Positions 14,644-56,815 of a stretch of DNA of 64,000 nucleotides are shown piece after piece. Numbering within the stretch: position 1 is the stretch's first letter; each line of letters begins with the position of its first letter. The stretch comes from an uncultured Armatimonadetes bacterium (lineage in GTDB: Bacteria > Armatimonadota > Hebobacteria > Hebobacterales > Hebobacteraceae). The notes under the pieces are model-generated. The model searched no databases and was not told the origin of the DNA. It saw only the letters and a program-made list of their open reading frames with translations. The translations under genes and the position numbers were made by a program. The stretch covers positions 32,001-96,000 of the forward strand of contig OY970296.1 in assembly GCA_963716175.1 (NCBI GenBank), in the 5' to 3' direction.

Positions 14644-16611
14644 CTAGCTCCAGGGCGCGAGCTGCGTGTTCATCCCGAACAGCGGGTCGATCAGGCTGCG
14701 CAGGCCGAAGATGAGGAAGTGGCCTAGCACCATGCCGAGGAAGAGCGGGCGGCAGGTCTTGTACAGCCGCAGGCCGCCGATGCGGCGTAGCGTGACCACG
14801 ACGATCCAGGCGATGAGCGCGTTCGTCCAGATGCGCGCGTTCATGCCCCAGGTGTCGGCCATCACGAAGCCGATCGGGCTGATCCCCCACCACAGGAAGC
14901 TGGTGTGCAGCCAGTGCAGCAGCAGCATGATCGCACCGCCGCTGATGAGGCCGAAGGGGAGGTAGCAATCCGACGCGCGTGGGTTGCGCAGGTCATCCAT
15001 CAACTGCCCGAACTGGCTCAGACCCATGTCCCGGAACCCCCAGGTGTCGAACTTGAAGGCCCCGTGTGTATACGCGCAGTAGAGGACGACCCACGGCGAG
15101 ATGGCGAGCATCAGCACCACGGACACCAGCAGCCCAATAGTCACCAGTCGCCCCGGCAGCCGCGCCGAGTGCGCCACCTTCAGGTCGTTCATCGCGTAGT
15201 GCATGAAGTTGACCTTGTACTCCAGCATGAAGGTGGCCTGAAGGTAGGTCATCATGGTGAGCGTGGGGCCGGAGTAGGCCCCGGCGCCAGTGAGGTTGAC
15301 CAGCATATCCTTGGCCGGCAGTCCCGGGTCCGGGACATACACGCCGCTGGCCGAGACGAGGCGGGCCATGGACAGCGAGAAGGCGTAGTAGACGGTGATC
15401 AGCGCTGCGAAGGCCCATAGGCTCATGCCGGTGCGCGAGGCCCACAGCGCGATCAGGAAGCTGCTCGTCCCGAGCCCCAGCAGCGCCGCGCGGGGAGAGC
15501 GGCGCGAGCGGATCCTGCGGGACGGGCCGGCCGACCAGATGCCCGAACGCGTTGGCGATCGACTTGCGCGACTGCCAGAGGAGCAGCCCGGCCAGCATCA
15601 GCGAGCCGCCGACCTGTTGGTAGGTCAGAAAGGCCCAGGGGCTAAAGACCCGGGCGCTCAGCCCTTCCTGACCGAACCCAAGGACGGAGAGGGTGACGAG
15701 CGCGACGCGGTTGACGATGAAGAAGAACCACAAGCTGAGCGCCACCTCTGCCGGCAGGAGGGCGATGATACCGATGGTTTCGAAGCCGATGTAGACCGTC
15801 GTGCCGGAGATGGCGTCCCAGTGACCGTTTCCCCTGAGCCAGGGGCTCAGCTCGAAATAGAGCGGAGTGTAGGGCACAGCCGGCGCGAAGGTGTGCGCCA
15901 TCTGCACCAGCGACTGCACGACAGGCAGTGCGATCCCGGCCCACAGGTACCGGTTGCGGAAGAGCGGCGCGCGCAGGGAGGGCACGCCGTCGCCGACGAT
16001 CTCCGTGGGGATGGCGGCGAAGGGGAAGCTCAGACGCTGCCCCTCGATCCAGTCCTTCCGCAGCAGACAGCCCAACGAGAACAAACCGGTGTAGAGGGCC
16101 AGCGCGAAGCCCGCCCAGGCGGCCATGGGAGTGAGCCACGGGCTCCAGGGGATGGCCGCGCCGGCCGGTGCGCCTTCGAAGTACCAGTGCACGGCCTCGG
16201 GCAGCTGCACCTGGAGCCAGGTCGGTACCATCGGGAGAAACACCTCCGCCCACTGATTCCCCGGCGACGCGAAGTAGCGGGGATGCACGGAGTTGCCAGT
16301 GGAGTACATGTTCAGGCCCTCGCTCGCAAGGGCGCCTGAGATCGCCATCATGGCGTACATCAGCAGCAGTTCCGGGGCGGTGAAGGCCCACTGCGGCCGC
16401 CGGCGCGCCAACAGTGTGTTCACTGGGAAGACCAGCAGGAACAGCACGAAGATCGGCCCCAGCGCCAGCGGCCGGAAGGCCCAGTCGTACTTGTTCAGCG
16501 AGAGGTTGATCCAGGGTATCAGAAAGGCAAGCGCGACTACCAGTAGCGCGCCGACGAACAGCGCACGCAGCCGTGGCAGCCGGACCGTCGGCTCGGCGGG
16601 TGCCGTCTCAC
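14644..16611 (-). pseudogene. DUF6785/DUF6784-like polytopic membrane protein, copy 1 (frameshifted)
   Basis: Two ORFs (14993-16447, 14644-15426) align with paralogs (ELLLMY, WIEGQRLSFP, WWGISPIGF, GGLRLY..RPLFLG); frameshift near 15490; probable GTG start at 16611 is out of frame. Confidence 0.8.
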
Positions 16612-16749
16612 TTGTCCTGGATGATGTCTCGATAGAGAACAGGGCGACGCTCTTTGGGCCAAAGATAGCGGAACTCAGCCGCGCCGTTCACGGACAGCCA
16701 GGCCTCATAGTGCTCCTGGTCCAGATCGATATCGGCCAACACCCCGTCC
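16608..16749 (-). pseudogene. C-terminal remnant of a carbon-nitrogen hydrolase (nitrilase superfamily)
   Basis: Translates VLADIDLDQ...KERRPVLYRDIIQDK*; cut at the IS end at 16750. Confidence 0.6.
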
Positions 16750-16993
16750 TGTTCAGAAACTCATCTGGCTCCCAGAGCCCCGTAGGGTCCCAAAACTTAT
16801 CTGAACTCCGGTACCAGCACTGCTGGAGACCGGCAGTTGACTTCCAATCCGAGCAGCAGGCATCCTGTCAGCATGTTCTACTACCTGGTCTTGCTGTCCC
16901 TCTCTCCACTGTACGCCCTCATCGGCCGTCTCCTCCTGGACGACCGCGGCCGAGAGGTCGTCACTCTCCGCCAACAGGTTTCCATCCTCCACG
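16750..16993 (+). mobile_element. IS left end plus N-terminus of an integrase-core transposase (remnant)
   Basis: TGTTCAGAAACTCATCTGGC, then MFYYLVLL...REVVTLRQQVSILH. Confidence 0.7.
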
Positions 16994-17032
16994 GTGATAT
17001 GCTTTCCCAGCCCAAGGTGGGAGGGGCGAGGA

Positions 17033-17195
17033 ATGCCTTCACGGCCTGAACCCTTGCTAGGGGAGTTGCTGCTCCGGCACAGGCTGGTCAGCCCACCTCA
17101 GTTAGAGGAGGCGCTGCAGAAGCAGCGCGGCACCCCCAAACACCTCGGCGAGATCCTGGTGGAGATGGGCGCGATCAGCGAAGCCGACCTGGCGA
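17033..17195 (+). pseudogene. MshEN/GspE-N-like fragment
   Basis: LLGELLLRHRLVSPPQLEEALQKQ...HLGEILVEMGAISEADL; no ATPase domain follows. Confidence 0.7.
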
Positions 17196-17280
17196 GTCAG
17201 CCCACGTTGAGTCGGTGGGAGAGGGAGCTCGCGTGGAACTTCATCGTTGGTGATTGGAATGGGCAGCCTCCAGCGTCAGC

Positions 17281-17415
17281 TTCTTCGCCGATTACATCGA
17301 CTCGCTCAAGACCGGCCGCGAGCCACACATCCCGTTCGCCGACTGCGTGCGCGTCACCGAGATCGCCCTCCGCGCCCGTCAATCCGCCAGAACAGGGAAA
17401 CCGTACACGCTGTGA
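17281..17415 (+). pseudogene. C-terminal fragment of a Gfo/Idh/MocA oxidoreductase
   Basis: FFADYIDSLKTGREP...DCVRVTEIALRARQSARTGKPYTL*. Confidence 0.65.
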
Positions 17416-17526
17416 GAAACGAGGATAGTCGTCAGGAGCTTCGATCACCTCTGGCGACTCGCTCCTGACCGGCGGGATCCGCGCCGACCTGCGTCATTTG
17501 CGGACAACGTCAAAGGAGACAACCCG

Positions 17527-19233
17527 ATGCGCCTGCTCTCACCGTGCCTCGTGCTCTTGCTGGTCTGCGCCGCGATCCTTCTCGCCTCCGCCTCCGCCCT
17601 CGCGGCCGACCCGGTCCTCACTCAACGCTGGCTCTTCGTCATGCGCGGCATGCGGACGGCCGAGGACGTTGATCGCACCGTCGCCCTCTTCCCACGCGCC
17701 AAAGCCGATGGCTACAATGCCGTCGTCCTCTCCGATGGCGCGTTCTATGGCCTGGACAGGGTTGACCAGTCCTACCGCGACAACCTCAAGCGCCTCCAGA
17801 AGGCCGCCTTCGACAATGGCCTTGACCTCATTCCCACCGTCATGCCCATCGGCTATGCGGGGAGCATTCTCGATTATGACCCGAATCTCGCCGAAGGTAT
17901 GCCCGTGAAGGACGCGCTCTTCGTCGTGAAGGACAAAGAGGCGCGCCTGGTCTCCGACCATCCCGTCGCCCTCGCGGGCGGCGACTTCGAGACGGCCGAT
18001 GGCAATCGCTTCTCCGGTTGGGAAATGCAGGACAATGTCGGCACCAGCACCTTCGCCGATCGCCAGGTCACCCACAGTGGCGGCCAGTCTCTGCGCATGG
18101 AGAACATCCCGCAGGCCGAACCCAAGTGGGGCCACTCCCGCCTGATGCAGACCATCAAGGTCACGCCCTTCCGCCAGTACCACTTCAGCGTCTGGGTGAA
18201 GACCCAGGACTTCGAGGCCCCCGAGACTGCGCGCGCCGTCGTCCTCGCGCCGACCGAACATGAGCAGTACATCGGCAACCTTTCCATTCACCTCAAGCGC
18301 ACCCAGGACTGGACTCGCTTCGATATGCTGTTCAACAGCCTCAGCTTCTCCGAGGTCCGCATCTACATGGGATGCTGGGGAGGCAAGAACGGCAAGATCT
18401 GGTGGGATGACGCGACCCTCGAGGAAGCCGGCCTCATCAATCCCCTTCGCCGCGACGGCTGTCCGCTCACCGTTCGCGGCAAGGACGGCACGGTGTACGA
18501 AGAGGGGAAGGATTTCGAGGCGGTCAAAGACTCGGAGCTCGCGCCCTACGCCTACTACCACGATCCCCTCGCCATCCGCCTCACCGCCCACAGCCGCATA
18601 CGCGACAGTGCCCGCCTGCGGGTGAGCTACTATCACCCGCTCATGAATCCCGCCGAGCAGCCGAACTGCTGCCTCAGCGCCCCGAGGCTCTACGGCCTCC
18701 TCCGCGACGAAGTGAAACGGGTCAACGACCTGCTGCACCCCAAGGTTTTCTTCATGCAGCACGACGAAATCCGCATCGGCAACTGGGACGCGTCGTGCCA
18801 GGACCGTCACCTCACCGCCGGCCAGATCCTCGCCGACAACGTGCGCAAGTGCATCCGCATCATCCGCGACATCCGGCCCGACGCCGATATCTGGGTCTGG
18901 TCAGACATGTTCGACCCCATGCACAACGCCGTCGGTAGCTACTACTCCGTGAACGGCAGTTGGGCCGGCTCCTGGGAGGGCCTCGACTCGAAGATCGGCA
19001 TCGTGAACTGGTACGGCGAACTCCAAGGGAAAAACGCCAAGTTCTTCGCCGATCGGGGGATGCGCCAGATCTTCGCCGGCTACTACGACGGTAACGAACA
19101 TGGCGAGGACGTCGCCCCCTGGTTCAAGGGCGTCGCCGGCCTCCCCGGCATCGTCGGCGCCATGTACACCACGTGGCAGGACAAGTATGCCGCCATGGAC
19201 GAATGGGCCCGTGCCGCCTGGGGCAAGCCCTGA
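17527..19233 (+). CDS. Secreted glycoside hydrolase-like protein (GH20-like barrel with CBM4/9-like insert)
   Basis: Signal peptide, AAGGAG RBS, GGDFE...HSG...WWDD CBM-like insert, MQHDEIR and WSDMF motifs. Confidence 0.7.
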   Translation: MRLLSPCLVLLLVCAAILLASASALAADPVLTQRWLFVMRGMRTAEDVDRTVALFPRAKADGYNAVVLSDGAFYGLDRVDQSYRDNLKRLQKAAFDNGLDLIPTVMPIGYAGSILDYDPNLAEGMPVKDALFVVKDKEARLVSDHPVALAGGDFETADGNRFSGWEMQDNVGTSTFADRQVTHSGGQSLRMENIPQAEPKWGHSRLMQTIKVTPFRQYHFSVWVKTQDFEAPETARAVVLAPTEHEQYIGNLSIHLKRTQDWTRFDMLFNSLSFSEVRIYMGCWGGKNGKIWWDDATLEEAGLINPLRRDGCPLTVRGKDGTVYEEGKDFEAVKDSELAPYAYYHDPLAIRLTAHSRIRDSARLRVSYYHPLMNPAEQPNCCLSAPRLYGLLRDEVKRVNDLLHPKVFFMQHDEIRIGNWDASCQDRHLTAGQILADNVRKCIRIIRDIRPDADIWVWSDMFDPMHNAVGSYYSVNGSWAGSWEGLDSKIGIVNWYGELQGKNAKFFADRGMRQIFAGYYDGNEHGEDVAPWFKGVAGLPGIVGAMYTTWQDKYAAMDEWARAAWGKP

Positions 19234-19244: not shown

Positions 19245-19491
19245 GGACGGTGCTCCCTGGAGGTGTCGGGCGCCCGTGAGACCGCAATTGCGGAGGTTCC
19301 CGGTCACCCACGCTGCTCACGCGGCGAGCCCCTAGACAGTGATCCGCGGCTCTGCGACCTTCCGGACCCGTGCCTGACCCCGGATCTGCTTCGCTGATCG
19401 ATCGGGCTTCTGCCAGTGGTGGCCCTGGTAGACCACCGACGGGGTCGCTCCGTCGAGCCCTCCATGGCAGCGGTGGCGGTTGTAGTAGACT
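19245..19491 (-). pseudogene. 3' remnant of the IS481-like transposase family of 41606-43140
   Basis: VYYNRHRCHGGLDGATPSVVYQGHHWQKPDRSAK...RITV*GLAA*; downstream GCGCCCGACACCT shared with the copy at 52308. Confidence 0.8.
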
Positions 19492-19530: not shown

Positions 19531-19654
19531 TTGGTGAGATCAGTTCAGCGTGGCCTCTGGATTCCTCGTGTTGGTCCTCCAGCTTCCGTTTCCACTGGGT
19601 CAGGTCTCCACGCCGATTTCGCCTCTAGCTGGGTCATGCCGGCACGCCGCCTAA

Positions 19655-19727
19655 CAACACCAACGATCGCGAGAGTGACCAGCAGCTCAATGAACGTGAA
19701 CCCAGTGCCTTTCCCAGGCTTGGCCAT
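19655..19727 (-). pseudogene. Prepilin N-terminal stub
   Basis: MAKPGKGTG|FTFIELLVTLAIVGV; similarity then ends. Confidence 0.6.
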
Positions 19728-19941: not shown

Positions 19942-22213
19942 TCACTGCCAAGCTGTCACCCGTGAGAGCTCAGATTGAAGCTTGCACAGACGGCCGTAGA
20001 GGCCGTCTCCGTCGAGCAACTCGTCATGAGTGCCGATCTCGACGACCCGCCCACGCTCCAGGACAATGATCTTGGAGGCTTTGCGCAGAGTGGAGAGCCG
20101 GTGGGCGATGGCGAACGTGGTTCGGTTCTCCACCAGGCGCTCGAGGGCTTGCTGAATCAGCATCTCGGTCTCGGTGTCAACTGACGACGTTGCCTCATCC
20201 AGGATGAGGATAGGCGGGTTCCTGAGGATGGCGCGAGCGATCGAGACCCGCTGGCGCTCGCCTCCGGACATGAGCTGACCCCGCTCACCTGTCAGGGTGT
20301 CATACCCATGTGGTAGATTCACGATGAAGTCGTGCGCGTTCGCCATCTTGGCGGCCGCGACGATTTCCTCTGCCCCAGCGTCGGGTCTGCCATAGGCGAT
20401 GTTCTCGGCTACCGTGCCGTGGAACAGGAACGGCTCCTGGAGTACGACTCCGATCTGCTGCCGGAGAGGGCGCAGGGCAAGCTGCCGCACGTCGATCCCG
20501 TCAATCAGGATCTGGCCGGACTCGGCATCGTAGAATCTGCTCAGCAATTGCACGAGTGTGCTCTTGCCTGCGCCGCTCGGGCCCACAAGTCCAATCACCT
20601 CGCCCGGCTCAGCCGCAAAGCTGATGTCAGTCAGAACGGGCCTTCCGGGCTCGTAGCCGAAGCTGACGCGCCTGAACTCGATGTGGCCGGTGATGCGCGG
20701 CAGTGTGATTGAGCCGGGGGCATCGGCGAGCTCGGGCGACGTGTCGAGCACCTCGAAGACCCGCTCCGCCGCGGTCAGCGCGTGCTGCACCTGGTGGTTC
20801 ATCTCGCCAAGATTCTCCACCGGATAGTAGAAGGACCAGAGCAACTGCGTGAACATCACCAGGGTGCCCGCGCTGGTCAGTTTCTGCAGCACCTGCATTC
20901 CCCCGACTCCCTGCACCACCAGGAAGCCGACCGCGGTCATGAGTCCGAGCGCAGGGAAGAATGTCGTCCACAGTCTGGCGGCGTTCAGCTCCTGGATGAA
21001 GAGAGAGGCGCTATGCTCGCGGAAACGTTTCGACTCCCGGCTCTCCTGGACGAAAGACTTCACGACCCGGATCCCGGGGATGGCGTCAGTCAGGGCGGCA
21101 TTCATCCCCGACCAGCGTCGCCACAGCTTGTGGTAGACGACATGGATGAGCTTGCCGAACCAGACGGTGCCCAGGACGATGAAAGGGGTCGGCAGCAGGG
21201 CGAGCGCGGCCAGCGTCGCGTTCGCCTGGAAGAGCATAATGCAGATGATGGGGATGGTGAGGAGATTGATCAGAATCTGCTGCAGCCCATCGGAGATGAA
21301 GTACTGCAGTTGCATGATGTCGTTGGTCACCCGAGACATGATCTGGCCCGTCTGCCGGCGACTGAAGAAACCCAGCGAGAGTAGTTGCAGGTGATCGAAG
21401 AGCTGGGTGCGCATGTCGAAGACGACGCGGGAGCCCAGCCACTGCATCATGTAGCCGCGGACCATGCTGATGCCCGCGTACACGACCTCGATCACCAGCA
21501 TCCAGATCACCACGATGGCAAGACCTGGCAGCCATCTCCGGTGCCAGAACCTGGTCAAACAGATACCGGGTCACGTAGGCCGGCAGCAGGCCGACCACTG
21601 TCAGCACGGTGCTGAGCGCGAAGCCCGTGATCGCGACCGCCTTGTGCGGGCCCAGGTAGCCGATCAGACGAAACAGCAGCTGCCTGCGCTGTATGCAGAA
21701 AGGGCACACCTCGGACCCGGCAGGGACTGCCCGTCCGCAGGTCTCGCACCGTCCCGCTTTCGAGGCAGACGCGGTGGAACGTTCCTGACCCTCGTCCTCG
21801 CTGCCAGTCAGTTGCCTCAGCAGATGGTAGACGCGGCTCGCCTCTGCCGCCACCGAACGGGAGAATCGGACCAGCTCAAAGGCCGCGTCGTCTGTGGCGA
21901 CCTCGAGAGCACCTCCTCCGATGAAATCCCTTAGCCGCACTCGGCGGACATCCGCTAGTGGGAGGTCCAGCTCCAGCCATGCGGAGCCCTCCTCCTGGGC
22001 GAGTGTGACTAGTCTCTGGTCAGTCACCACGAGCCAGCGGTTGCCGTAATGACCTGATAGTGTCATGTCCGAGTAGACAGTGGCCAGACGGGTCTCATCA
22101 GGGGCCAAGCAGGCGAACAGCTCCGCCGCCTGCTCGGGAAGATCCGCTTGCAGGGCCGCGTCGTTCAAGAACGGCTGCAGCTCTTTCGTCTCCATGCTGG
22201 TCATCGTCTTCAT
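19942..22213 (-). pseudogene. ABC exporter-type permease/ATPase with N-terminal extension and CxxC-CxxC finger (frameshift near 21545)
   Basis: GPSGAGKS, MSGGERQR, ILDEATSS; N-terminal ORF 21086-22213 with CETC...CPFC. Confidence 0.85.
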
Positions 22214-22761
22214 GCAATCGAGCCGCTCACCGGTGCCCGGAATCCCCTACCAGGCTTCGTGGGCCGGAAACTCGCCCGCCGCCAAGACGAAAAGCGGCAA
22301 TCCCTGCCTCACCCTTCGGCAGAGACGCGAGTGACCAAGGTGGGATCATCGGCTGGGAGTGAGAAGGGCCTTGTCAGTACGAGTCCGGGGAGAGGAAGCT
22401 TCAGTGAGTCCGGACTACTGCACAGGAAGGCTACCGCGTACGCGGCCGCTTGTCAATCGTCTGAACGGCTGGAACCAAACAGAAAAGTGCCAACAGGGAC
22501 GCTGTGCCGATGTCATCGGTCCCGGGCTCCCCACGTCTGCTCGGCTAGCGGCGGCCCTAGCTGCAGGCCGCCGACGAGCCTGCTAGCGGTGGCTCAGGCC
22601 TAACCTCGGAGATAAGTCCGGATGGAACGGTCGCTTGGATCGGGGGCACGGGAGATCGTGAAGAAGGCACCCCAGTACGGGCAGCTAAGCCCTTCTCCGT
22701 ATGCCAACGCGCGTTTGTGGCTCCAAAACGGAAGTTGTGCCTATCCGGTTGGCTCACCAGC

Positions 22762-25814: not shown

Positions 25815-26888
25815 CTACGGCCGTTCTGCTGTTGCGCCGAATCCTGCAAACAGCGGCGCCGGGCCGGTTGACTGCCTGACCACGAGCCGAGCCGTCACCC
25901 GTGGACTCGGAAGCCGGTCTACGCCGTCTCGCATCAGCCACTCGAGGGCGAGGCTCCCCGCCTCGGCCCGCGGCAGAGCGAGCGTTGTGAGCGGCGGATC
26001 CGTGAAACGCGCAGTGAAGATATCGTCTACGCCGACGATCGAGAGGCGCTCGGGCACCCGGAACCCGGACTGCCTCGCGGCCTGAAGCGCCCCTAGGGCA
26101 AGCAGGTCGTTGTGGCAGACGATGGCGGTGACCTCGCCCGCGCCACGCAGGAGATCGAGCACTGCGGCCTGACCGGTCTCCGGGCGCTGGCCGCCCCTTG
26201 CGGTCGCGATCCATTCGTCGGGGAGCTGAAGGCCGTGGTCGGACAGCGCTTCCCGGAAGCAGAAGAAGCGACTCTCGCGGCTGGCGGGACGGTCGGTCGG
26301 ATCCCACAGATAGCCGATGTTGTGGTGACCGAGAGAGGCCAGGTGGGCAACGATGTCGCGCATGCCGGTGCGGAAGTCGATCGAGAGACTCCGGGCTCCC
26401 TCCGGCAGATGGGGCTGTAGCTCCAATCCAAGCACGCGGATGTGAGCGGAGAGCAGGCGCTCGACGTGGCGAGAGTCGAGGCACCAACCCCACATGATGA
26501 CGCCGTCCACGCGCCTGCTGAGCAGCATCTGGACCTGGCGCCAGGCGGCATCCTCCTCGGTTGGCGCGGTGCATACCATCACACTGAGCCGGGAACCTTG
26601 AGCTGCCAGTTCAACACCTTTGATGAAGTCGGCGTAGAATGGGTTTCCCAGGTCACCAACGAGCACCGCCACGGTGTGCGTGTTGCCCTGCCGCAGGCTC
26701 TTCGCGACGTAGTTGATCTCGTAGCCAAGAGTCTCTATGGCAGCTCGGACCCGCGCGGCGGTGGTTTCGCTGACCGATGTGGTCGCGTTGATGACGCGCG
26801 ACACTGTCGCGACAGAAACGCCCGCGCGCCGGGCGACGTCCTGCATACGCACTCTGGCCTGGCGATGCATCACTCGAATGGCTTTCAC
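25815..26888 (-). CDS. LacI family transcriptional regulator
   Basis: MQDVARRAGVSVATVSRVIN HTH; CHNDLLALG; VGVDD; start uncertain. Confidence 0.95.
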   Translation of the reverse strand: MKAIRVMHRQARVRMQDVARRAGVSVATVSRVINATTSVSETTAARVRAAIETLGYEINYVAKSLRQGNTHTVAVLVGDLGNPFYADFIKGVELAAQGSRLSVMVCTAPTEEDAAWRQVQMLLSRRVDGVIMWGWCLDSRHVERLLSAHIRVLGLELQPHLPEGARSLSIDFRTGMRDIVAHLASLGHHNIGYLWDPTDRPASRESRFFCFREALSDHGLQLPDEWIATARGGQRPETGQAAVLDLLRGAGEVTAIVCHNDLLALGALQAARQSGFRVPERLSIVGVDDIFTARFTDPPLTTLALPRAEAGSLALEWLMRDGVDRLPSPRVTARLVVRQSTGPAPLFAGFGATAERP

Positions 26889-27923: not shown

Positions 27924-28094
27924 TCTACCTCCTAATGATGCTCGCACAAAGAAGCAACAGCGGCAGGACCATGCGCCCGTCTGCGGCGTAGTCTGTCCGC
28001 GTTTCGCCGTTACCTCCCTTGGCGAAATGAGGTGGCCATTGGCGCGAGTCGCTGCTGCGGATGTTCGCCTGCTCGGCCAATGCTCCCTCCTTGC

Positions 28095-36863: not shown

Positions 36864-36924
36864 GACGCTGAGCCGGTCCCGGCGGAGCCCTTTTGGGCGC
36901 TGACGGAGAGAAGGAGAAGATGCT

Positions 36925-37602: not shown

Positions 37603-37666
37603 GCTCAACGGCGGGCCTGGCAGGACGGTATGCTTGCAGCCGTCACCGAGGATCAGGAGGTAGAAC

Positions 37667-45170: not shown

Positions 45171-45849
45171 ATTGCCTCCCGCGGGTTTCTGCAGTGCTGA
45201 GCATGCCGGACCAGGCAGGTTGCGCTCCTCACGAACCTGGTCTGAGTTGCTCGACCCTTGGTCGATGCCTCTGAGGCTGTCCCCCTGGAAGACACTATCA
45301 GGACTGTCCTGCGGGGCTGGGTTCGCCGCGGCTCTCTTGGCATCCTTGGGGCATGAATGGGATCGTCGATTGCGTGTGTGGCCTCCGAGGCTGCTTGGGT
45401 GTCCTCCTTCAGCTCCTCCGGTAGTTCTCCGATTCTGCTGAGCGCCGCCGCCGTCAGAAGCGGTGATGGCGGCCCGGCTGCTCGCGGTCCAGAGTCAGTT
45501 GTGCTCGTGACGCGGTGATGGGACCGCTCAGACCAGCGGTTCCCGGCCATCCGGGATGGGCCGACGGCGGCTACAGCCCAGACAGGCGAGACAGCAATCC
45601 CACATAGGCACAGATGCACTGGCAACGCGCGCATACTGCGCCGGCACCCGTCCGCTGCCGCCATGCTTTGCCCAATCTGGATGTGTAGGGCCGGTTACAT
45701 CGCCGCGTAGCAGCAATAACTGGAACCTCTCGATATGGGTGTAAGGCTCCTTCCTGCTGTCTAGGTCGCAGCAATGGAGTCCTGCGGCCTCTCCCTGGCC
45801 AGGCCCCTCTTGCACACTCCATGATATGCGACCGCCGCCCCAGATCGCG

Positions 45850-45878
45850 TTGACTACCCGCCCCTCCGGTGCTACCAT
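45850..45878 (+). promoter_or_regulatory. Sigma70-like promoter for pilin-like copy 2
   Basis: TTGACT-17-TACCAT with extended TG. Confidence 0.55.
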
Positions 45879-46025
45879 TGCGTCAGCGCCTATCGCGTGG
45901 CGCTCCGTCCCAGGTAGAGGTCGTCCCGCTCTATGGGGGGTAGGAAAGGAGGTGACAGGAAGCGGTCACTGGCAGCTAGCCATGCAGCCTTGTTTTCAGG
46001 TTTGGTTTCCCGAGGAGGCGAAGTG

Positions 46026-47087
46026 ATGACCAGAAGACGTGGCTTTACCCTGATTGAGCTTCTCGTCGTGATCGCGATCATCGCGATCCTCGCAGCAATG
46101 TTGTTTCCTGTCTTCGCGCGGGCCAGAGAGTCGGCGCGCAAGATCCAGTGCCTCTCCAATGTGAAGAACGTCGCTTTGGCCGTCCAGATGTACCTCACCG
46201 ACTATGACCGACTCCCGCCGCATGCCAGCGCCAGTGGCGATGAAGCCACCTTCTTCGCTACCATCCCCGGCGGGCGCCCGGACAGGGAGGAATGTGGTGG
46301 TTGGACCTCCTCCGGGCTGTGGGGCGCCAACCCCTACTTGCGCTGGCAGGTGATCTTGGACGAGTACATCAAGAACCGGGATGTCTGGCGCTGCCCCAGC
46401 GCGAAGTACGCGGCCCAGGCCACTCCAGCGTTCATCGTGCCCAACTACGGCGGTGTCTGGTGGAAGTACCTCCAGGACAATGTCGGCTCCTGGGGCTATC
46501 ACACCGACGCCGGCGGCCCCTGCACGAACAGCGGCGCCTTCCCGACCGGGTGGGGCGGCACTGTCACCGACTCCATCAAACAGCAGACGCAGGCCAGCCT
46601 CGACACTGGCGCCTTCGAGTCCACCATCAGCTACTCCAACCAGTGGCTGGACATGAAGACCGCGCAGGTGGATGACCCCTCCTGGTTCATGGTCGTCGGC
46701 GACTGCTGCATGAACCCCTACATCTGGACCGCAGGCAGCGCCTTCTATGAGTTCTGCGGCGGCGACACCACGAGCTGGAATGCCGCTGAGGGCGTAGGCT
46801 GTTACACGTGCGAGGTGGCCGACTGGGTGAACTGCTCGGACACCGTCGACTGCGGCGTCCCCTACGGCGGGATGAGCAAATGGCTCAGTGATGCCTCCTG
46901 GCGCAACAAGCACACCCGGCACATGGGCGGCAGCAACCTGGGCTTCATGGACGGACATGCCGCCTGGTTCCCGGCCGACCAGGCCATGTCGAAAGTGCCG
47001 TACTGCATGCCCTGCGACCCCAGCACCGGCAATGCCGTCATCCACAAGGAAGACAGGCCGCTGATGGGATTCTGCCCGGTGACGTAG
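46026..47087 (+). CDS. Prepilin-type N-terminal cleavage / H-X9-DG protein, copy 2 (intact)
   Basis: MTRRRG|[16 protein letters not shown]; [15 protein letters not shown]; GAGGAGG RBS. Confidence 0.92.
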
Positions 47088-47592: not shown

Positions 47593-49719
47593 ATGGAGAG
47601 ACCCGTAGAGAGGCAGTTCCAGATGCGCCAGATCTTCTGCGACTGGCACTTGCCCAATTTCCTGCCTCAGATCACCATCGATCTCGACGACTACTTCGAG
47701 AACATCGCCAGAACAGGCGCCGAGTGTCTGATCTTCCAGGCCAAGAACGCCCACGGCAACTGCCTCTACCCCACCACGGTTGGTGTTGCGAACCAGGGAA
47801 TGAGGGGCCAGGACATCTTCGGAGATGTCTGTCGCCGGGCGAAACGGATGGGCCTGCAGTTCGTAGCCTACTATAACGTGATCCTCAGTTACGAACTGGC
47901 GAGAACACACCCGGAGTGGCAGCAGGTGGATCAGTACGGAGTGCGCCTGCTGTTCGAGCACTACCCGTCCATGTGCATGAGCAATGATGAGTTCGCAGTG
48001 CACGCCTGCGACCAGATGGAGGAGATTGCACGGGGATACGACATTGATGGGTTCTTCCTGGACCTCCAGTACTTCGACCCACAAGGCTGTTACTGCGAGT
48101 CGTGTCGGCGGAAATTCGAAGCGCAGTATGCTTACCCCCTGTCGCCGACAAGCCTGGTCACGGCACGGGCACGGCTCGATTTCATCAACTTCAAGGTCGC
48201 AATGCGTGAGCGGTTCATGCGCGCCTTACAGGTGCGTTGCGACAGCGCCAAGCCCGGCCTGCTCTGGATGTGGAATTCCGCGGGCAATCCGGAGCTCGCC
48301 GCGCGCAGCTTGGACCGCCACGCCGATTGCATGGTGGGCGAGGCCCATCCGCCGGAGTACCTCCATGCCGACCTGAGAGCAGGGCTCATGCAGGCGACAG
48401 GTGCGCCCTTTGTGCTGATGATGCCCGAGAGCCAGGGAAGCTGGGGCGACTGGACTGTCACAACTGTACCAACCCTGAAGGGGCTCTCAGCACTGGCCAT
48501 CGCCCGAGGCGGGGCGCTCAACCTGAACCACGTCCCGTATCCCTGCGGCGACTACGCCGGCCGGGTGGCGCGACCTGTGTGGGACGCCATCGCTGAGACC
48601 CTCACCTGGGTCCGAGAGCGGGAGCCTTGGTGCGCGGGAAAGCAGCGGGTGGAGGTCTGCGGCTGTCCCGTGTCGGAGACGAGCATCAAGCTCTTCCAGG
48701 CGCTGAGCGGGCTTTCCGGCACCGCGTACTGGAATGATCACCTTGCGACCCTCGGGTCGCTTCATCAACTCCTTTCGGAGCTGCATATTCCCCTCGGGTT
48801 CTTCTACGAGGAGGACGCCCCGAGCAGGATGGGTGACTACGAGTTGGTGATGTTGCCGAACCTGCTGCACATCAGCGCTGCATTCGCTAGCGAACTGCGA
48901 GAGTTCGTGAGACAAGGCGGCAGATTACTGGCCACATACCAGACATCGTTGCTGGATGCGGAGGGCAATCGGCTGCCCAACTTCTCGCTGGCGGACATGT
49001 TCGGCGTGGATTTCGAGGCGGACAGTCCGTACAGCGTGTCTTACCTCGACCGACTCGATTCCTGTTTCCGCGGGACAGTCCCCGACATGCCACTCCTGCT
49101 GAAGGACTTCGACCGAGGCGACAACCCGTCCAACCACGCCCTCTACTGCACGCTGCGACCTGGAGCTCGCGCCCTCGGTTACCTCAGCGATCCCGTGATC
49201 GAAAGCAACTTCGAGTTGGGACACTTCATCTACCATCAGCATTCACCTCCCGACAGATACACCGATTACCCGGCCATCGTTGTCAACGGCTACGGGCGGG
49301 GCAGGGTGGCCTTCTTGCCTGTGCCCTTCTTCAGGGCCTTCCAATCGTCGAGTCCTGCACGCGGGCGAAGCCCGTTCCTGAAGGAAGTCCTCCGGGTCCT
49401 GGTCGAGGAACAACTCGACCTATCTCAGAGGATTCGCGTGAGAGCCCCGGCATCAATCAAGACCATGGTCATGCGGGACGAGGAAGGCTGGCTGCTGCAT
49501 CTGATCCATATCCAGAAGGGATCAGACAGCATGTACCTGGACGCATTCAAGCGGGTCGGGCCCATGGAGGTCTGGGCCAATCCGGGGTGGCCGGTCCTTT
49601 CAGTCACGGAATGCATGACTGGGAGGAGCTTCGCTCACGATCTCGACCGGGGGGGGATTCGCTTTGCAGTTCCGTCAGTGACCGACCATGCAATCCTGAG
49701 GATAGCTAAGCGCGCATGA
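47593..49719 (+). CDS. Glycoside hydrolase-like protein (GHL6/GH29-like barrel plus trimerisation-like domain)
   Basis: AKNAHGNCLYPT, HPEW, YDIDGFFLD, CYCESC, FVRQGGRLLATYQTSL. Confidence 0.75.
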   Translation: MERPVERQFQMRQIFCDWHLPNFLPQITIDLDDYFENIARTGAECLIFQAKNAHGNCLYPTTVGVANQGMRGQDIFGDVCRRAKRMGLQFVAYYNVILSYELARTHPEWQQVDQYGVRLLFEHYPSMCMSNDEFAVHACDQMEEIARGYDIDGFFLDLQYFDPQGCYCESCRRKFEAQYAYPLSPTSLVTARARLDFINFKVAMRERFMRALQVRCDSAKPGLLWMWNSAGNPELAARSLDRHADCMVGEAHPPEYLHADLRAGLMQATGAPFVLMMPESQGSWGDWTVTTVPTLKGLSALAIARGGALNLNHVPYPCGDYAGRVARPVWDAIAETLTWVREREPWCAGKQRVEVCGCPVSETSIKLFQALSGLSGTAYWNDHLATLGSLHQLLSELHIPLGFFYEEDAPSRMGDYELVMLPNLLHISAAFASELREFVRQGGRLLATYQTSLLDAEGNRLPNFSLADMFGVDFEADSPYSVSYLDRLDSCFRGTVPDMPLLLKDFDRGDNPSNHALYCTLRPGARALGYLSDPVIESNFELGHFIYHQHSPPDRYTDYPAIVVNGYGRGRVAFLPVPFFRAFQSSSPARGRSPFLKEVLRVLVEEQLDLSQRIRVRAPASIKTMVMRDEEGWLLHLIHIQKGSDSMYLDAFKRVGPMEVWANPGWPVLSVTECMTGRSFAHDLDRGGIRFAVPSVTDHAILRIAKRA

Positions 49720-49774
49720 GCAGGCCGGTCCGACCTGGCTGTTTGACAACAGCCGTGAAAGGGAGAAGTGAAAC

Positions 49775-50938
49775 ATGAAGACCATTCCAGCGAGCGAGTT
49801 CGAAGAACGACAGAAGAGGGCGCAGCAGCGAGTTGCAGAGGCAGGACTGGACGCCGTCATCGCCCACTCCAACGAGGCCGACTTCGCCAACGTGCGCTAT
49901 CTCTCCGACTATTGGCCGGCATTTGAGTCCGCGGGCGTCATCATCCCCGCCGAGGGAAAGCCGATACTCCTGATCGGGCCCGAGAGCGAGACCTACGCGC
50001 TGGACAGAAGCCGGATCGAGACGGTGCGCAAGGTTCTCTGGTACCGGGAGAGCGCCGAGCCCGACTACCCGGACATCCCGATCAACACCTTCGCCGAGGT
50101 GTTCGCCGAAGCCTGCGGCGGCAAGCCGGTGAAGCGGCTTGGCATCGTGGGCCGAGCGATCTTCCCGATGGTGATCTATGAGGAGATCCGCAAGGCGCTG
50201 CCGGGGATCGAGATGGTGGGCGCCGACGAGATCATCAGTGACATGCGCATCATCAAGAGTCCTAACGAGATTGCGCTGCTGAAGGAGGGTTTCCGGATCA
50301 GCGAGATCGCTATTGACGAGTGCCTCGCGCAGATGAAACCGGGCATGACCGAGCTGAGGGTCGTAGGGCTGGCGCTGAAGTCACTCTACAGCCATGGCGC
50401 GGAGTACGAAGCCCATCCGCAGTATGTCATGGGGGGGACCAACACGAACCATGCCATCTCCCGGGCTAGCTATCGTCCACTGGCTCAGGGGGAGATGATC
50501 CAGCTCAACCTGGGCGCCCGCGTGGGGGGCTACAGCCCAAGTGTCGGCCGACCGTGCTGCTTTGGCAGGATGCCGGACGAGATGCGAAGGCTGGTGCAGA
50601 TTGGGCTTGAGGCTCACCTCAAGACCATGGAGCCTATGCGCGCGGGCGTGTTGGCGAAGGACATCGTGAAACGCTTCGAGGAGTTCGTGAAGTCGAAAGG
50701 ATGCGGAGGAAATCTGCTGTATGGGCCTTGCCACGGCATCGGCATGATCGAGGTTGAGCGGCCCTGGATGGAGAGCACCAGCGACTACCTGCTGCGGGAG
50801 AACATGACCTTCCAGGTCGACACATTCCTGCATACCGACAGCTATGGGTTGCGCTGGGAGGACGGCGTTCGCGTGACGGCCGACGGGGTCGAGCAGTTGT
50901 CGAGCCGCCACCAGGAAGTGCTGGAGCTCCCGCTATGA
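49775..50938 (+). CDS. M24 pita-bread fold hydrolase (Xaa-Pro peptidase/creatinase-like)
   Basis: RIIKSPNEI, HGIG, RWED. Confidence 0.85.
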   Translation: MKTIPASEFEERQKRAQQRVAEAGLDAVIAHSNEADFANVRYLSDYWPAFESAGVIIPAEGKPILLIGPESETYALDRSRIETVRKVLWYRESAEPDYPDIPINTFAEVFAEACGGKPVKRLGIVGRAIFPMVIYEEIRKALPGIEMVGADEIISDMRIIKSPNEIALLKEGFRISEIAIDECLAQMKPGMTELRVVGLALKSLYSHGAEYEAHPQYVMGGTNTNHAISRASYRPLAQGEMIQLNLGARVGGYSPSVGRPCCFGRMPDEMRRLVQIGLEAHLKTMEPMRAGVLAKDIVKRFEEFVKSKGCGGNLLYGPCHGIGMIEVERPWMESTSDYLLRENMTFQVDTFLHTDSYGLRWEDGVRVTADGVEQLSSRHQEVLELPL

Positions 50939-51324
50939 GCTTCCCGCGTCTCCTGGGCCGGACCATGTGGGCATTCCCGGACGGCGACCTGCCCGCGCCC
51001 GGAGAGAAGGAGCCACATGGGCACGAGTCGCTGGTGCTGTTCAACCCAAACGCTCGACCGGCGAAGGTGCAACTCACTATCTTCTTCGAGAACCGGGAAC
51101 CCGAACGCGACCTGTGCGTTACCGTGGATGCAGAACGAGTCCGGTGCGTACGGCTTGACCAACCTGTCGGCGACCGCGGTTTCCGCGTGCCGTTCGGCCA
51201 ATATGCCCTCCTCGTCGACTCCGACCAGCCCATCATCGCGCAGGTCGGCAGGATGGACGTTACGCAGCCCAACCTCGCCTACTACACCGTGATGGGATTC
51301 CCGCTCGGACAGGATACGCGATGA
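50935..51324 (+). CDS. Anabaena sensory rhodopsin transducer (ASRT)-family protein
   Basis: WAFPDG, HESLVLFN, SDQPIIAQ..RMD; ATGA coupling on both sides. Confidence 0.85.
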   Translation: MSFPRLLGRTMWAFPDGDLPAPGEKEPHGHESLVLFNPNARPAKVQLTIFFENREPERDLCVTVDAERVRCVRLDQPVGDRGFRVPFGQYALLVDSDQPIIAQVGRMDVTQPNLAYYTVMGFPLGQDTR

Positions 51325-52223
51325 CACGAGATCGCCGTGTGATAGCAGTGTTCGGCTTCGATATGGAGACCGACATCGGGAGCTGGACGCCGTTCTACGA
51401 GGGACTGGTGAAGGGCACGCCGCGTCTTCTCGAACTGCTCTCCGCGCACGAGATCAGCGCAACTTTCTACTTCACCGGACATGCCGCGCGCACCCACCCT
51501 GAGATGGTGCATGCGGTGGACGCAGCGGGTCACGAGGTCGGTTGCCATAGCCTCTACCACGAGACGGTGGGCGATGAGCTCTTTCCGATCCCTGGCACAT
51601 ACCCCCTGCTCGCCGAAGAGGTCCCCGTGCGCCTGAAGAGGGCGACCGAATGGGTGACGGCCGCGCTGGGGCGGCGCGTGGTTTCCTTCCGGTCACCGCG
51701 ACTGTTCGGCTCTACGGCGGTCGTCAATGCGCTGGAGGCGCTGGGATATGAGACCGACGCGTCGTATCCCCTCTACTACTACCGCGAGCGCCTCACGCCC
51801 TACCACCCCAGCCGCAGCGACTGGACCGCGGAAGGCGACTCGCCGATGCTGGAGATTCCGAACTTCGCCGACCTCTCGATAGAGAGCACGGATCCGCTGG
51901 GCCGCGACCGAGACCAGTGGCCGAAGTACCGCACAGAGGGGGCCGGGGCGCTGCTTGCCACCGTTGACTCCTTCACCGCCATCGCTCACGGCCGCGGGCT
52001 GCCGGCTGTGCTCTGCTTCTACTTGCATCCCTGGGAGTTCGTCGAAATGCCGCAGAGCCTCATTCACTTCGGTGAGGGCGCGGTGCTGCCCGATCCGTTC
52101 ATCGTCGCTGGCTGCGGGGACCATGCCCTGCGCCAACTGGCTGTAGTGCTGAGCGGCCTGAGACAGCGCGGATCCGTCTTCTGCACCGCCCGGCAGATCG
52201 CCGAGACGTGGGATAACGTGTAG
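51321..52223 (+). CDS. Polysaccharide deacetylase (NodB/CE4-like)
   Basis: FDMETD, ATFYFTG, GHEVGCHSLYH, FRSP, YLHPWE. Confidence 0.88.
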   Translation: MTRDRRVIAVFGFDMETDIGSWTPFYEGLVKGTPRLLELLSAHEISATFYFTGHAARTHPEMVHAVDAAGHEVGCHSLYHETVGDELFPIPGTYPLLAEEVPVRLKRATEWVTAALGRRVVSFRSPRLFGSTAVVNALEALGYETDASYPLYYYRERLTPYHPSRSDWTAEGDSPMLEIPNFADLSIESTDPLGRDRDQWPKYRTEGAGALLATVDSFTAIAHGRGLPAVLCFYLHPWEFVEMPQSLIHFGEGAVLPDPFIVAGCGDHALRQLAVVLSGLRQRGSVFCTARQIAETWDNV

Positions 52224-52307: not shown

Positions 52308-53802
52308 TGTCGAAGGACTGTAGGACCGTCCTGGACGTGTTCTGGGCTTGTCGAGGCTGACTTCTTGGCATATCATATGAACTCGGTGCGCGGCGCCTTC
52401 GGGCGCCGCATTCTCTTTGGGAGTCAACGCGGTGGAGGTCTTCGAGGCGTCGGTATCGCTGATGGTGCGGGCCCTGGTGATCAGCGCCCGGTGGACTGGC
52501 CGCAGGCGACGGCTCTGCTTGGAGCAGGCGTGCATGAATGTGCAGGCAGGACGGATCGCGGAACTCGAAGCGTGTGTCGTGGTGCTGGAGGATGCCCTGG
52601 CCTTCCCAGATGCATGCCTGGAGGTGCTGGAGAGGAGGCTTGGGGAGGAGCGACCGCGACGGCCCTATCCCTTGGGGGAGCGGCTGCGTCTCCTGTGGCT
52701 GATTGACTACTACCAGATCCCGAAGCGGAGGGTTAGGGAGACCTTCGGGGTGGCGCGCTCGAGCATTCACCGCTGGCTCAAGGGCTTTGAGGCAGGCAAG
52801 CTCGGGGGTCGTCAGAAACGCTCTGAGCCCGTCAACAAGACGCCACGAGAGATCGCTCAGCTGATCTGGGACATCTTCCGGCGAAACCCACTGTGGGGCC
52901 GTCACCGCATCGCAATGACGGTGTGGGCGCTTGGCGTATTCGTCTCAGCGACCGCGGTGCGTGACATCCTGCTGCGGCCCAGACCTAAGAGGTCTGCCCC
53001 GCAAGCGGCCTGTGCGAAGCCAGAGCCAAAGCGCAGGGAAATCGTTGCCAGCTACCCCAACCACGTGTGGTCGGTGGACCGGACGCGGGTGTGGCGCTTG
53101 GGCGTCTGGCCCACCTGGGTGCTGGTGGCGATCGACCATTTCTCCCGCGCCGTCACCGCCGCGGTTCCCCTGGAAGGGCCAAACGCAGGATGGATCATGG
53201 ACGCCCTGGAGCAGGCCTTCCTGCGCCACGGACAGCCCAAGCACTTGATCACCGACCAAGAAGGGGTCTTCATCTCTGACTTCTTCCGGAACCTCCTCAG
53301 CCAGTGGAAGGTGAGACAGCGCTTCGGTGCCGTGGGCAAGCACGGCTCGATTGCGGTAACTGAGCGGCTGATCCGGACCCTCAAGCGGGAATGGCTGGCG
53401 CGGGTGCCGCTGATCCGTGGTCTGGATCACCTCTCAGAGTTGCTTGCGGCCTTCGCTGTCTACTACAACGAGTACCGCGGTCACCGGCGACTGGGCCGGG
53501 CGACGCCATTGATGCTCTACCGGGGACAGATCTGGCGGCGGCCAAACCGATCAGCCAAGACGCTGCTAGGCTCGGTTCGCACTCGGCACTTCGCCGAGAC
53601 CAGGATCACCGTCTATGAACTCGCCGCCCGACCACCCAGAGGAGACAGCCTCGGGACGCACGAGGTTTGCGGCAGTGGTCCTACGAGCGCCCGACACCTA
53701 CACACGGTCCCAACCTCGCCAGCCTCGCGCTGCCCGCACCGCAGAAGCGAACTCTTCCCGATGCCCGACAGGCGTCTCAAACCAATGTGACAACTGCAGA
53801 CA
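52308..53802 (+). mobile_element. IS481-like insertion sequence, copy B
   Basis: Homologous left end and transposase; no target duplication; right boundary inferred from the adjacent truncated gene. Confidence 0.8.
52417..53790 (+). CDS. DDE transposase with read-through C-terminal extension
   Basis: Paralog of 41715-42932; TGA after VYELAA is CGA here (53629-53631). Confidence 0.85.
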   Translation: MGVNAVEVFEASVSLMVRALVISARWTGRRRRLCLEQACMNVQAGRIAELEACVVVLEDALAFPDACLEVLERRLGEERPRRPYPLGERLRLLWLIDYYQIPKRRVRETFGVARSSIHRWLKGFEAGKLGGRQKRSEPVNKTPREIAQLIWDIFRRNPLWGRHRIAMTVWALGVFVSATAVRDILLRPRPKRSAPQAACAKPEPKRREIVASYPNHVWSVDRTRVWRLGVWPTWVLVAIDHFSRAVTAAVPLEGPNAGWIMDALEQAFLRHGQPKHLITDQEGVFISDFFRNLLSQWKVRQRFGAVGKHGSIAVTERLIRTLKREWLARVPLIRGLDHLSELLAAFAVYYNEYRGHRRLGRATPLMLYRGQIWRRPNRSAKTLLGSVRTRHFAETRITVYELAARPPRGDSLGTHEVCGSGPTSARHLHTVPTSPASRCPHRRSELFPMPDRRLKPM

Positions 53803-53870: not shown

Positions 53871-53887
53871 TTCGGGGATCGCCTTCC

Positions 53888-55657: not shown

Positions 55658-55947
55658 GGCGTCTCTCCCCTGCCCATGGCAGGCCTCTGTACCATACGGC
55701 CGGCCAAGCGCCCGCACCTGCTGCCACCCAGCCGGCCCGCAGTGCGGGGCGCAAGGGTTGGTGTTGTCGGCATGAGAGCCGCTCTGCTATACTGCCGCGG
55801 CTCAGCAGTCCATCCCGGAAGGCCGCCAGTGTCGGAGCTCGCCAGGCCAAGAGTATACCGGCGCATATGCACCGGCTCCCTGCTGGTTCTGCCAGAACCT
55901 GACCGCTACGTCCTCGTCGACGCGGACAGCAGCATCACTCCCACCAG

Positions 55948-55981
55948 AAAACGGGAGTCCCGGGGTGTTACCGGGACTCCC
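55948..55981 (-). terminator. Rho-independent terminator after pilin-like copy 3
   Basis: GGGAGTCCCGG-TAACACC-CCGGGACTCCC-GTTTT on the minus strand. Confidence 0.75.
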
Positions 55982-56057
55982 ATATCAGTTAGGGATGCGC
56001 TCGCTCAATCGAAACAACGGGAGCGCCATCCGGCGCTAGGCTGCGCGACTCACAGCC

Positions 56058-56815
56058 CTAGTGCACGAAGCTGGTGATCTCGTAGGATGGGCACATGCCC
56101 TTGATCTTGCCTGGCGGTGTCGAGTAGCAGTCTGTATAGTTGGTCTCAGGAGCACAACACCTGGCATTCCCGGCCTCTGTGACGGCGGCCTCCGCATTCC
56201 ACCAGGCGGCGTGTCCATCCGCAAACCCGAGGTTGAGGCCGCCAAGGTGAGGCGCATATTTGCTCCGGAACGAGGGGTCACTGAAGAAGTTGCAGGCATC
56301 GGTGCCGAAGGCGGCACCCGAGTCCCCTCCGCTGAGATCCCAGCAGCAACATGGATTGCTGCCATAGGCCATCCCGAACATCGTTCCCAGATCGCAGCCT
56401 CCCTGGCTATCACCGCACACGACCCACCAGCTCGGGTAATCAATCTCCGACGTTTTCCTTCCGATGAGACACCAGTCATTGTAGCCGATGGTGATTTCGA
56501 GGGCCCCCGTATCTTCGCTTCCCCGCTTCTGCTGGGCGATGGAGTCGGTGACGGAGCCGCCCCAGCCAGGCGGCCAGGCTTGGCAGCAAGGCCTGCCACC
56601 GCAGCCCCCACTAGTGTTGTGATCACTGGAACCCCAGCTTCCTTGAGTCTGCACGAGGTAGTCCCACCAGATCGGGGTGTGCTGGGGCACGATCCACATT
56701 GCCGTGGATATATGCTGAATGCTCGGGCAGCGCCAGACGTCGCGGTTCTTGATGTACTCGTCAAAAACAACGGGCCAGCGCAGGTAGGGGTTCGATCCCT
56801 GGAACCGGTTGCGTG
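56058..56815 (-). pseudogene. H-X9-DG pilin-like protein, copy 3, 5'-truncated by IS copy C
   Basis: [51 protein letters not shown]; prepilin N-terminus absent. Confidence 0.88.

Follow-up and report, generated by a model that had tools for sequence, protein, structure and literature searches.

The stretch analysed here is a window of 64,000 nucleotides (contig OY970296.1 of GCA_963716175.1, an uncultured Armatimonadetes bacterium; positions 32001-96000 of a genome that forms one contig of 4.56 Mb and is 91% complete), in which genes for large membrane proteins with the domains DUF6785 and DUF6784 are interspersed with genes for prepilin-like H-X9-DG proteins and sugar-active enzymes. On the evidence of a predicted structure, the DUF6785+DUF6784 protein almost certainly has the OPT fold, and it is very probably an importer. 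It belongs to an OPT-fold carrier family found in cassettes that resemble polysaccharide utilisation loci (PULs) and contain new parts, an arrangement which is neither a PUL of SusCD type nor a fixed pairing of binding protein and importer. Our computations establish the predicted OPT fold, the expansion of both families, their non-random adjacency and the coupling of AraC-type regulator genes to pilin genes; they also show that the importer does not depend on the pilin. On balance we lean towards a reading in which stand-alone OPT-fold importers and separately acting, substrate-induced pilins have been recombined into PUL-like cassettes.

The membrane-protein genes of the window are as follows:

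14644 to about 16610, minus strand: predicted OPT-fold importer with DUF6785/6784, copy 1; Pfam matches on both of its pieces; 37-39% identical to copy 3.
29525 to 31456, minus strand: predicted OPT-fold importer with DUF6785/6784, copy 2; intact, 643 amino acids; the protein used for the structural model.
43149 to 45170, minus strand: predicted OPT-fold importer with DUF6785/6784, copy 3; intact, 673 amino acids.

Both domains (PF20581, PF20580) are matched above the curated cut-off, in a single frame in copies 2 and 3, and in two pieces in copy 1, which is spread over two reading frames with a break near 15490 and lacks an in-frame ATG, GTG or TTG before 16447. Thus the three paralogous proteins of about 650 amino acids noted in a first-pass annotation of the window all carry DUF6785 and DUF6784, but only copies 2 and 3 are intact. 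Pairwise identity among the three is 28-39%, and a census of the genome counts 47 such proteins with a median identity of 27%. Because frameshifts affect 10/47 importer loci, 6/53 pilin loci, and likewise the ABC exporter and dehydrogenase genes of the window, most of these gene breaks are probably assembly or long-read errors. Co-occurrence inside 64 kb in itself says little, since 16 of the 47 importers crowd the first 405 kb of the genome.

Copy 2 was modelled with AlphaFold2 from an alignment of 142 sequences (mean pLDDT 95.0, pTM 0.94). Foldseek returned two matches with E <0.001, both of them barley Yellow stripe 1 (YS1; E 3e-7, TM 0.61/0.65, 12% identity), and a wide fold search over 48,161 chains placed YS1 (7wsr) first at Z 24.4, with 552 residues aligned at a root-mean-square deviation of 3.9 and the runner-up at Z 5.3. 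The predicted copy 2 therefore matches a YS1-type fold along the whole chain (7wsr/7wst). YS1 is its only clear structural match, which answers the earlier question of an OPT-like fold in the affirmative and fits the suggestion that these proteins are transporters. The Pfam OPT profile (PF03169, the family that we take to be TC 2.A.67) matches three DUF6785 loci of the genome, one of them above cut-off, and DUF6785 loci in 9/14 genomes of the same family (best relative E 3.4e-13, positions 2-618). The same profile gave no match at E 0.001 in window copies 1-3 and detected no canonical OPT gene elsewhere in the genome, while a profile of the importers had 0 matches at E 10 among PDB sequences. 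An inverted repeat of N- and C-terminal halves was not seen when the halves were compared profile to profile with hhalign, and is implied by the structural match only.

YS1 is described as having a core and a scaffold domain, moving in elevator-like fashion with proton symport, and holding its substrate at hairpin loops and discontinuous helices; Asp446, Asp490 and Asp494 are its protonatable core residues (PMC9691689). Position 466 of copy 2 lies in a helix that pairs with YS1 transmembrane helix 9 (TM9) by topology, not by residue-level alignment. It is acidic (Glu or Asp) in 33 of the 47 paralogues, while 11 have Asn there, two have Thr and one has a gap; Arg408 is retained in 45/47. The segments that match the YS1 binding elements topologically, namely the hairpin loops and discontinuous helices, are clade-specific among the paralogues, and from this we infer ion-coupled import with diversified specificity.

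The family is widespread in the phylum, with DUF6784 in 127/151 genomes, mostly in 5 to at least 30 copies, vs 0/14 control genomes. Among named genomes, 78 DUF6785/6784 loci fall mostly in Poribacteria (48) and Armatimonadota. An Atlas cluster of 878 members, mostly Bathyarchaeota, carries DUF6785/6784 (DUF6785 in 95%) with OPT in 11%, so that the family reaches archaea. In a literature search that is weak on subscription journals, no mention of DUF6785, DUF6784, PF20581 or TIGR04294 was found; no publication describing an arrangement of importer, pilin and sugar enzyme appeared among the titles listed, and the term DUF was not found in the accessible part of a 2026 preprint on OPT evolution.

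Many importer copies probably carry carbohydrates, to judge from the enzymes encoded next to them. For the 44 importer loci that lie beyond the window, we classified by hand the two flanking genes to the left and the two to the right, passing over importers, pilins and anything shorter than 120 amino acids; with 2 genes left out, this gave 159 neighbours. The controls, classified likewise, were 140 of 167 genes in 20 randomly chosen regions, none of them closer than 15 kb to a member of either family. Glycoside hydrolases (GHs), polysaccharide lyases, carbohydrate esterases and sulfatases made up 21/159 neighbours vs 3/140 controls (Fisher p 4e-4), a contrast inflated because the control regions were picked away from both families. 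Within this genome, the anticipated association with glycan-degrading enzymes is accordingly borne out. By count there is no enrichment near importers of GFO proteins, TIM-barrel isomerases, URO-D, MFS, SLH or ECF. A giant peptidase-like/FtsX protein as partner of the importer was considered and rejected, since none occurs in the 159 neighbours, including 12 large unannotated ones that were scanned again; L006 holds a single, ordinary MacB/FtsX gene. Regulator, transporter and carbohydrate-active enzymes are clustered at five individual importer loci (L002, L007, L027, L037 and L038), including the cassettes dehydrogenase-pilin-importer-alpha-fucosidase-SDR (L007), AraC-pilin-importer-GH4 (L037), and GH4 followed by pilin-importer-GH4 (L027). 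In genome coordinates, the importer that precedes the alpha-fucosidase gene occupies 264259-266184, and two that precede GH4 genes occupy 4347502-4349439 and 2833459-2835327. To that extent the proposed PUL-like architecture stands, but it lacks a tandem susC/susD, and the genome has only two TonB receptors, neither of them within 20 kb of an importer. As first annotated, the window contains no sugar ABC importer, phosphotransferase system (PTS) or SusC/D. The genome as a whole has 12 matches to ABC-importer permeases, 10 to SBP_bac_1 and 17 MFS proteins (local profile), with no profile match to SSF or PTS EIIC.

The inflation of that contrast is one of several points that weigh against carbohydrate import. 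General sugar-catabolic oxidoreductases, isomerases and kinases are not enriched (21/159 vs 14/140, p 0.47), many importer copies have housekeeping genes (his, rpl, AIRS) for neighbours, and the genome retains some SBP_bac_1 ABC importers besides its 17 MFS proteins. Named GHs account for 8/100 immediate neighbours in other Armatimonadota families (100/120 scanned, without a matched control) and for 0/63 importer neighbours in Poribacteria (63/87 scanned, after removal by eye of apparent repeats). Genes of the nitrilase family (CN_hydrolase) are over-represented around importers, with 4/14 within 1.5 kb vs about 1.0-1.5 expected, which hints at non-sugar substrates for some importers; these neighbours sit at L009, L020, L028 and L036. 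YS1 transports metal chelates (PMC9691689). The other OPT members that have been characterised take peptides or metal chelates and are not known to take sugars. The copies could retain canonical OPT chemistry, with oligopeptides, glycopeptides, amides or metal chelates as substrates, and the sugar enzymes nearby could reflect large catabolic regions only. The fold and profile matches, neighbouring nitrilase/amidohydrolase and methyltransferase genes, an M24 hydrolase near copy 3, the GH-free Poribacteria neighbourhoods, and the lack of a canonical OPT gene elsewhere are all consistent with such chemistry, which we nevertheless regard as unlikely: glycan-degrading enzymes are enriched beside the importers, the sole peptidase among the 159 neighbours is of type M23, genes for metallophore synthesis, Fur or TonB are absent from them, the cassettes with alpha-fucosidase and GH4 are difficult to accommodate, and a diverse ligand class would suit 47 diverged copies.

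The pilin-like genes of the window are the following:

33628 to 34727, minus strand: H-X9-DG pilin 1, divided between two frames next to a seven-base homopolymer; N_methyl match, TIGR04294 above cut-off.
46026 to 47087, plus strand: H-X9-DG/DUF1559 pilin 2, intact, with 14 cysteines, divergent from copy 3; N_methyl and DUF1559 matches.
56058 to 56834, minus strand: H-X9-DG pilin 3, 5'-truncated, with about 90 N-terminal residues replaced by an rve-type insertion sequence (IS).
19653 to 19727, minus strand: prepilin stub, copied from the 5' end of a different pilin gene and joined to an IS remnant; N_methyl match.

The H-X9-DG motif is readable in all three pilins, as first described, and the stub matches N_methyl, but only the gene at 46026-47087 is intact. 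A functional fourth pilin at 19655 was considered and rejected: the stub is a duplicated gene fragment joined to an IS remnant, and lies in a 144-nt piece that is 95% identical to the 5' end of the pilin gene at G000:2904471-2904614 (G000 being the genome that holds the window). The rve-type IS belong to one family with four copies or remnants in the window (41730-42932, 52420-53628, 56928-57988 and 19316-19487), which are 70-86% identical and of which two break pilin genes; 17 matches occur genome-wide.

The census counts 53 H-X9-DG pilins. Pilin 2 has a class III signal (G|FTLIELL) and a DUF1559 domain, pilin 1 retains N_methyl, and pilin 3 has lost its signal to the IS; pilins 2 and 3 fall marginally below the TIGR04294 cut-off. 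The H, D and G of the motif are invariant in 136 aligned sequences, and the paralogues share nearly identical first 60 residues, conserved motifs and 8-18 cysteines, with variable loops. The pilin model (pLDDT 87.5) comprises a 52-residue N-terminal helix (3-54) and a globular head. Type IV pilins top both fold-search lists, weakly (best Z 4.6; Foldseek E 0.13), in alignments that cover the helix and the strands up to the H-X9-DG region. With the whole model as query, and the head not searched separately, no lectin, binding-protein structure or two-lobed periplasmic binding fold was listed. The genome has genes for two prepilin peptidases (PilD), for assembly ATPases and for nine proteins with a secretin domain. 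DUF1559 proteins have been termed solute-binding (PMC4807772), 25/91 N_methyl + SBP_bac_10 proteins of Tuwongella were found in membrane fractions (PMC8567305), and glycan binding is described for minor pilins in the type IV pili of Streptococcus sanguinis (PMC9934059). Binding of glycans by the pilin head seems to us to have somewhat less than an even chance.

The first-pass annotation cast the pilins as glycan-binding subunits of cognate importers. Co-occurrence beyond chance is evident genome-wide: a pilin lies directly upstream on the same strand of 9/47 importers, vs null means of 0.12-0.55 when positions were shifted circularly or jittered locally by 10-100 kb, and 0/600 shuffles reach nine. 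Two further pairs are divergent, among them copy 3 and pilin 2 of the window, whose divergence was correctly read and whose start points are 856 bp apart. On a quick tree, the nine paired importers are distributed over four or more starred clades; with pairs so scattered, a single recent cassette duplication is rejected as their source. In a strict model, the membrane-anchored pilin would be the binding subunit of its DUF6785 importer, in the style of ABC or TRAP binding proteins. Such a model could draw on the single orientation of the nine pairs, their gaps of 102-312 bp with a T-run terminator in 0/9, the similar family sizes (53 and 47), and the label of an Atlas cluster ('DUF1559 family PulG-like putative transporter'). 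It could also draw on other families, where, in 60 regions of seven genomes chosen among the 99 matches listed, a pilin lies within about 4 kb in 13/60 and is directly adjacent in 7/60, once as a tandem pilin-importer-pilin-importer (L198, genome G134).

We nonetheless consider the strict model improbable, and the claim of a fixed subunit and cognate importer is not upheld. No pilin lies within 1 kb of 36/47 importers. Pilins within 2.5 kb accompany 5/18 importers in genome G001 and 8/41 in G011, both above null with all N_methyl genes counted, but 1/26 in G020, which is not above null; direct pairs in G020 number 0/26. In three of the seven other-family genomes, pilins occur at 0/23 regions, and in Poribacteria at 0/48 importer loci (some flanks being short). 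Of 27 homologues of copy 3 from related genomes, six lie no more than 1.5 kb from a pilin, and these six cover all four orientations; the three most similar homologues (69-71%) are not among them. YS1 is described as functioning without a binding protein (PMC9691689). The importer is independent of the pilin: five Poribacteria genomes hold 17, 22, 28, 30 and 59 DUF6784 matches vs 3-4 N_methyl matches each, and importers there cannot depend on an expanded set of such pilins. At L009:12122-12238 a 39-codon importer 3' remnant lies between two tandem pilin genes, which suggests that an importer was lost from a former pair.

The strongest link found for the pilins is instead regulatory. Of 12 AraC genes, 11 have a pilin gene at a distance of 119-504 bp, the twelfth being 1.75 kb off (null 0.6-2.0; 0/300 reach this count), and 8/12 have an importer within 5 kb. 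The neighbours are mostly divergent (for example L002:11825-12649 and L037:13035-13907), and a cupin-type sensor domain is present in 5/6 rescanned AraC proteins. In three other genomes, compared by eye, AraC genes stand beside a pilin in 4/7, 9/12 and 1/2 cases; none of the window pilins has an AraC neighbour.

Published expression data for Fervidibacter sacchari (PD1, GCF_030520105.1), an isolate of the same phylum whose DUF1559 proteins are distant homologues of the window pilins, bear on the induction of pilins. From the RNA-seq sheet in the supplement of PMC11535203, which covers eight polysaccharides, we took every DUF1559 row, 30 in all. Twelve of the 30 genes vary at least fivefold, and up to 43-fold, and several of them have their maximum on a single substrate (gellan, chondroitin sulfate). 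The other 18 vary less than fivefold, a point against the favoured reading; both counts stand without a genome-wide fold-change baseline. Three DUF1559 genes rank 2, 5 and 14 of 3610 (0.12 expected, p 2e-4), with ranks derived from ratios of adjusted to raw p-values, and the proteome sheet has 20 DUF1559 rows. If accession order is taken as gene order, a pilin lies within three accession numbers of 6/8 AraC-type rows, and the pilin beside the flatly expressed AraC WP_259100849 is sevenfold up on chondroitin sulfate. The accessible expression table never names DUF6785, and no accession of the isolate occurs among 120 importer matches or 10 clusters. The proposed response to different sugars is thus seen for pilin homologues, which respond to polysaccharide, but no importer could be matched to a row of the table. 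A sequencing-run search with 43149-47087 yielded no RNA data set among the matches listed.

These data also bear on the possibility that the pilins form a variable repertoire of adhesins, or one for evading phages or predators, with no role in uptake, and that both families were simply inserted in the same regulated catabolic regions. Independent control of the pilins would be expected in this case: 32/53 begin their own transcription unit, and a short polypurine leader motif precedes 26/50 pilin genes, 0/47 importers and 46/3556 called genes. Tandem pilin arrays in G020 lie apart from importers, and Planctomycetales genomes are reported to carry at least 41 N_methyl + SBP_bac_10 proteins each, spread evenly round the genome and with no function given (PMC8567305). 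The persistence of adjacency under 10-100 kb local jitter, the recurrence of AraC-pilin coupling across genomes, and the substrate-specific induction in F. sacchari make this a rather remote prospect. At window positions 45930-45975, a Shine-Dalgarno-like polypurine stretch, of which the leader motif is a short form, stands well upstream of the pilin 2 start.

Under the reading of stand-alone importers and separately induced pilins, DUF6785 and DUF6784 would make up a single protein, distantly allied to the OPT/Yellow-Stripe fold, which resides in the cytoplasmic membrane and needs no partner. By analogy with YS1, import may proceed through an ion-driven, probably proton-driven, elevator-type secondary carrier. 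The lineage would have multiplied this importer 47-fold with clade-specific binding loops, to fill the place that the PTS, sodium symporters or many ABC importers occupy in other bacteria, and many copies probably take in oligo- and monosaccharides and modified sugars for the enzymes encoded alongside. The H-X9-DG proteins would be subunits similar to type IV pilins, in which the N-terminal helix is invariant and the large head is variable and rich in cysteines. Some of them may be switched by the adjacent, ligand-sensing AraC, such that substrate-specific heads are displayed outside the membrane, where they would most likely bind the substrate or a surface carrying it. Shared regulation, not a fixed complex, would then join regulator, pilin, importer and hydrolase in PUL-like cassettes. 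An extension of this scheme, which we consider conceivable but unlikely, is SusCD-independent foraging, in which induced, variable-headed type IV pilins extend through the secretin, capture glycan and retract to the periplasm, and OPT-fold importers take the products in.

The remaining features of the window that accompany these genes are listed below:

17527 to 19233, plus strand: secreted protein with CBM_4_9 (PF02018, E 2.8e-6), divergent from copy 1; no PDB sequence match.
25815 to 26846, minus strand: LacI-family regulator, by profile match.
26932 to 29351, minus strand: 418-amino-acid protein of no recognised family and frameshifted Zn-dependent dehydrogenase, downstream of copy 2 on the same strand.
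31707 to 33512, plus strand: 601-amino-acid protein, enzyme-like but unclassified, encoded between copy 2 and pilin 1; weak DUF4350/DMFA2_C matches only, no PDB match.
35439 to 38512, plus strand: GH4 alpha-galactosidase, D-lyxose/D-mannose isomerase-like protein and xylose-isomerase-like TIM barrel, divergent from pilin 1.
47623 to 52223, plus strand: GHL6/GH42-trimerisation glycosidase-like protein, M24-family hydrolase, ASRT protein and polysaccharide deacetylase, downstream of pilin 2.

Profile searches recovered the whole of the sugar-enzyme setting first described, namely GH4, the isomerases, the GHL6 protein, the deacetylase and LacI. The LacI gene is the only match of its family in a genome with about 60 GFO/IDH/MocA, 44 URO-D-like, 37 xylose-isomerase-like and 16 GH4 genes. 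A frameshifted ABC exporter at 19942-22246, nearest to a cyanophycin-associated family, lies 3 kb from copy 1, and a comparable ABC exporter with DUF1854 (L013:4968-7879) is encoded 3' of the importer most like copy 3. Elsewhere in the window are a secreted 1877-amino-acid protein that combines a DUF2334 deacetylase-like domain with SLH domains and a tandem series of near-identical PKD-like repeats (6766-12399; the genome has about 48 SLH proteins), an IS110 transposase (13019-14218), a DUF3300 protein whose C-terminus is a long run of a repeated Pro/Arg/Ser-rich unit (58163-59689), and a HepB-like heparin/heparan-sulfate lyase (62352-63998; NF045571, 510 bits) cut by the window end.

Armatimonadota and Poribacteria are rich in glycosidases, and the identity of the importers of their food is a question that phylum-wide OPT-fold carriers, as the obvious candidates, could answer; an isolate and published RNA-seq exist, such that the proposal is directly testable. 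If carbohydrates are indeed carried, they become a substrate class of the OPT fold. SusCD-independent foraging, if true, would give a function to the DUF1559/H-X9-DG family, which is one of the largest unexplained protein families in Planctomycetota, Verrucomicrobiota and Armatimonadota, and AraC-pilin coupling together with glycan-dependent expression constitutes the first handle found on the function of these pilins.

Among known systems, the OPT/YSL family (HvYS1, 7wsr/7wst) resembles the predicted importer in its whole-chain fold over 552 residues, its length of about 640 amino acids, its layout of core and scaffold, the weak profile matches in paralogues, and the acidic or amide residue kept in the helix matching YS1 TM9 by topology. 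Identity is only 8-12%, however, and the window copies miss the OPT profile; moreover, OPT/YSL proteins usually number one or few per genome and neighbour metallophore or peptide genes, whereas the DUF6785/6784 family numbers 5-59 and neighbours glycosidases and pilins. DUF1559/SBP_bac_10 prepilins (PF07596, TIGR04294) share with the pilins the class III signal, the DUF1559 match, the C-terminal motif and a large paralogous expansion, but those described here are cysteine-rich, longer (320-375 amino acids), and tied to AraC genes and often to OPT-fold importers. The S. sanguinis minor pilins provide a precedent for a pilin subunit with a glycan-binding head, although they are described as one or two modular adhesion pilins, in contrast to the present set of some fifty variants, which are regulated and in which the fold of the head is unrecognised and its glycan binding conjectural. 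The PULs of Bacteroidota, which are based on SusC and SusD, likewise cluster regulator, surface protein, transporter and glycosidases and repeat them in substrate-specific variants. In the present cassettes there is neither SusC nor SusD, the transporter would be an inner-membrane secondary carrier and the surface protein a pilin, and the linkage is looser, with 9/47 direct pairs.

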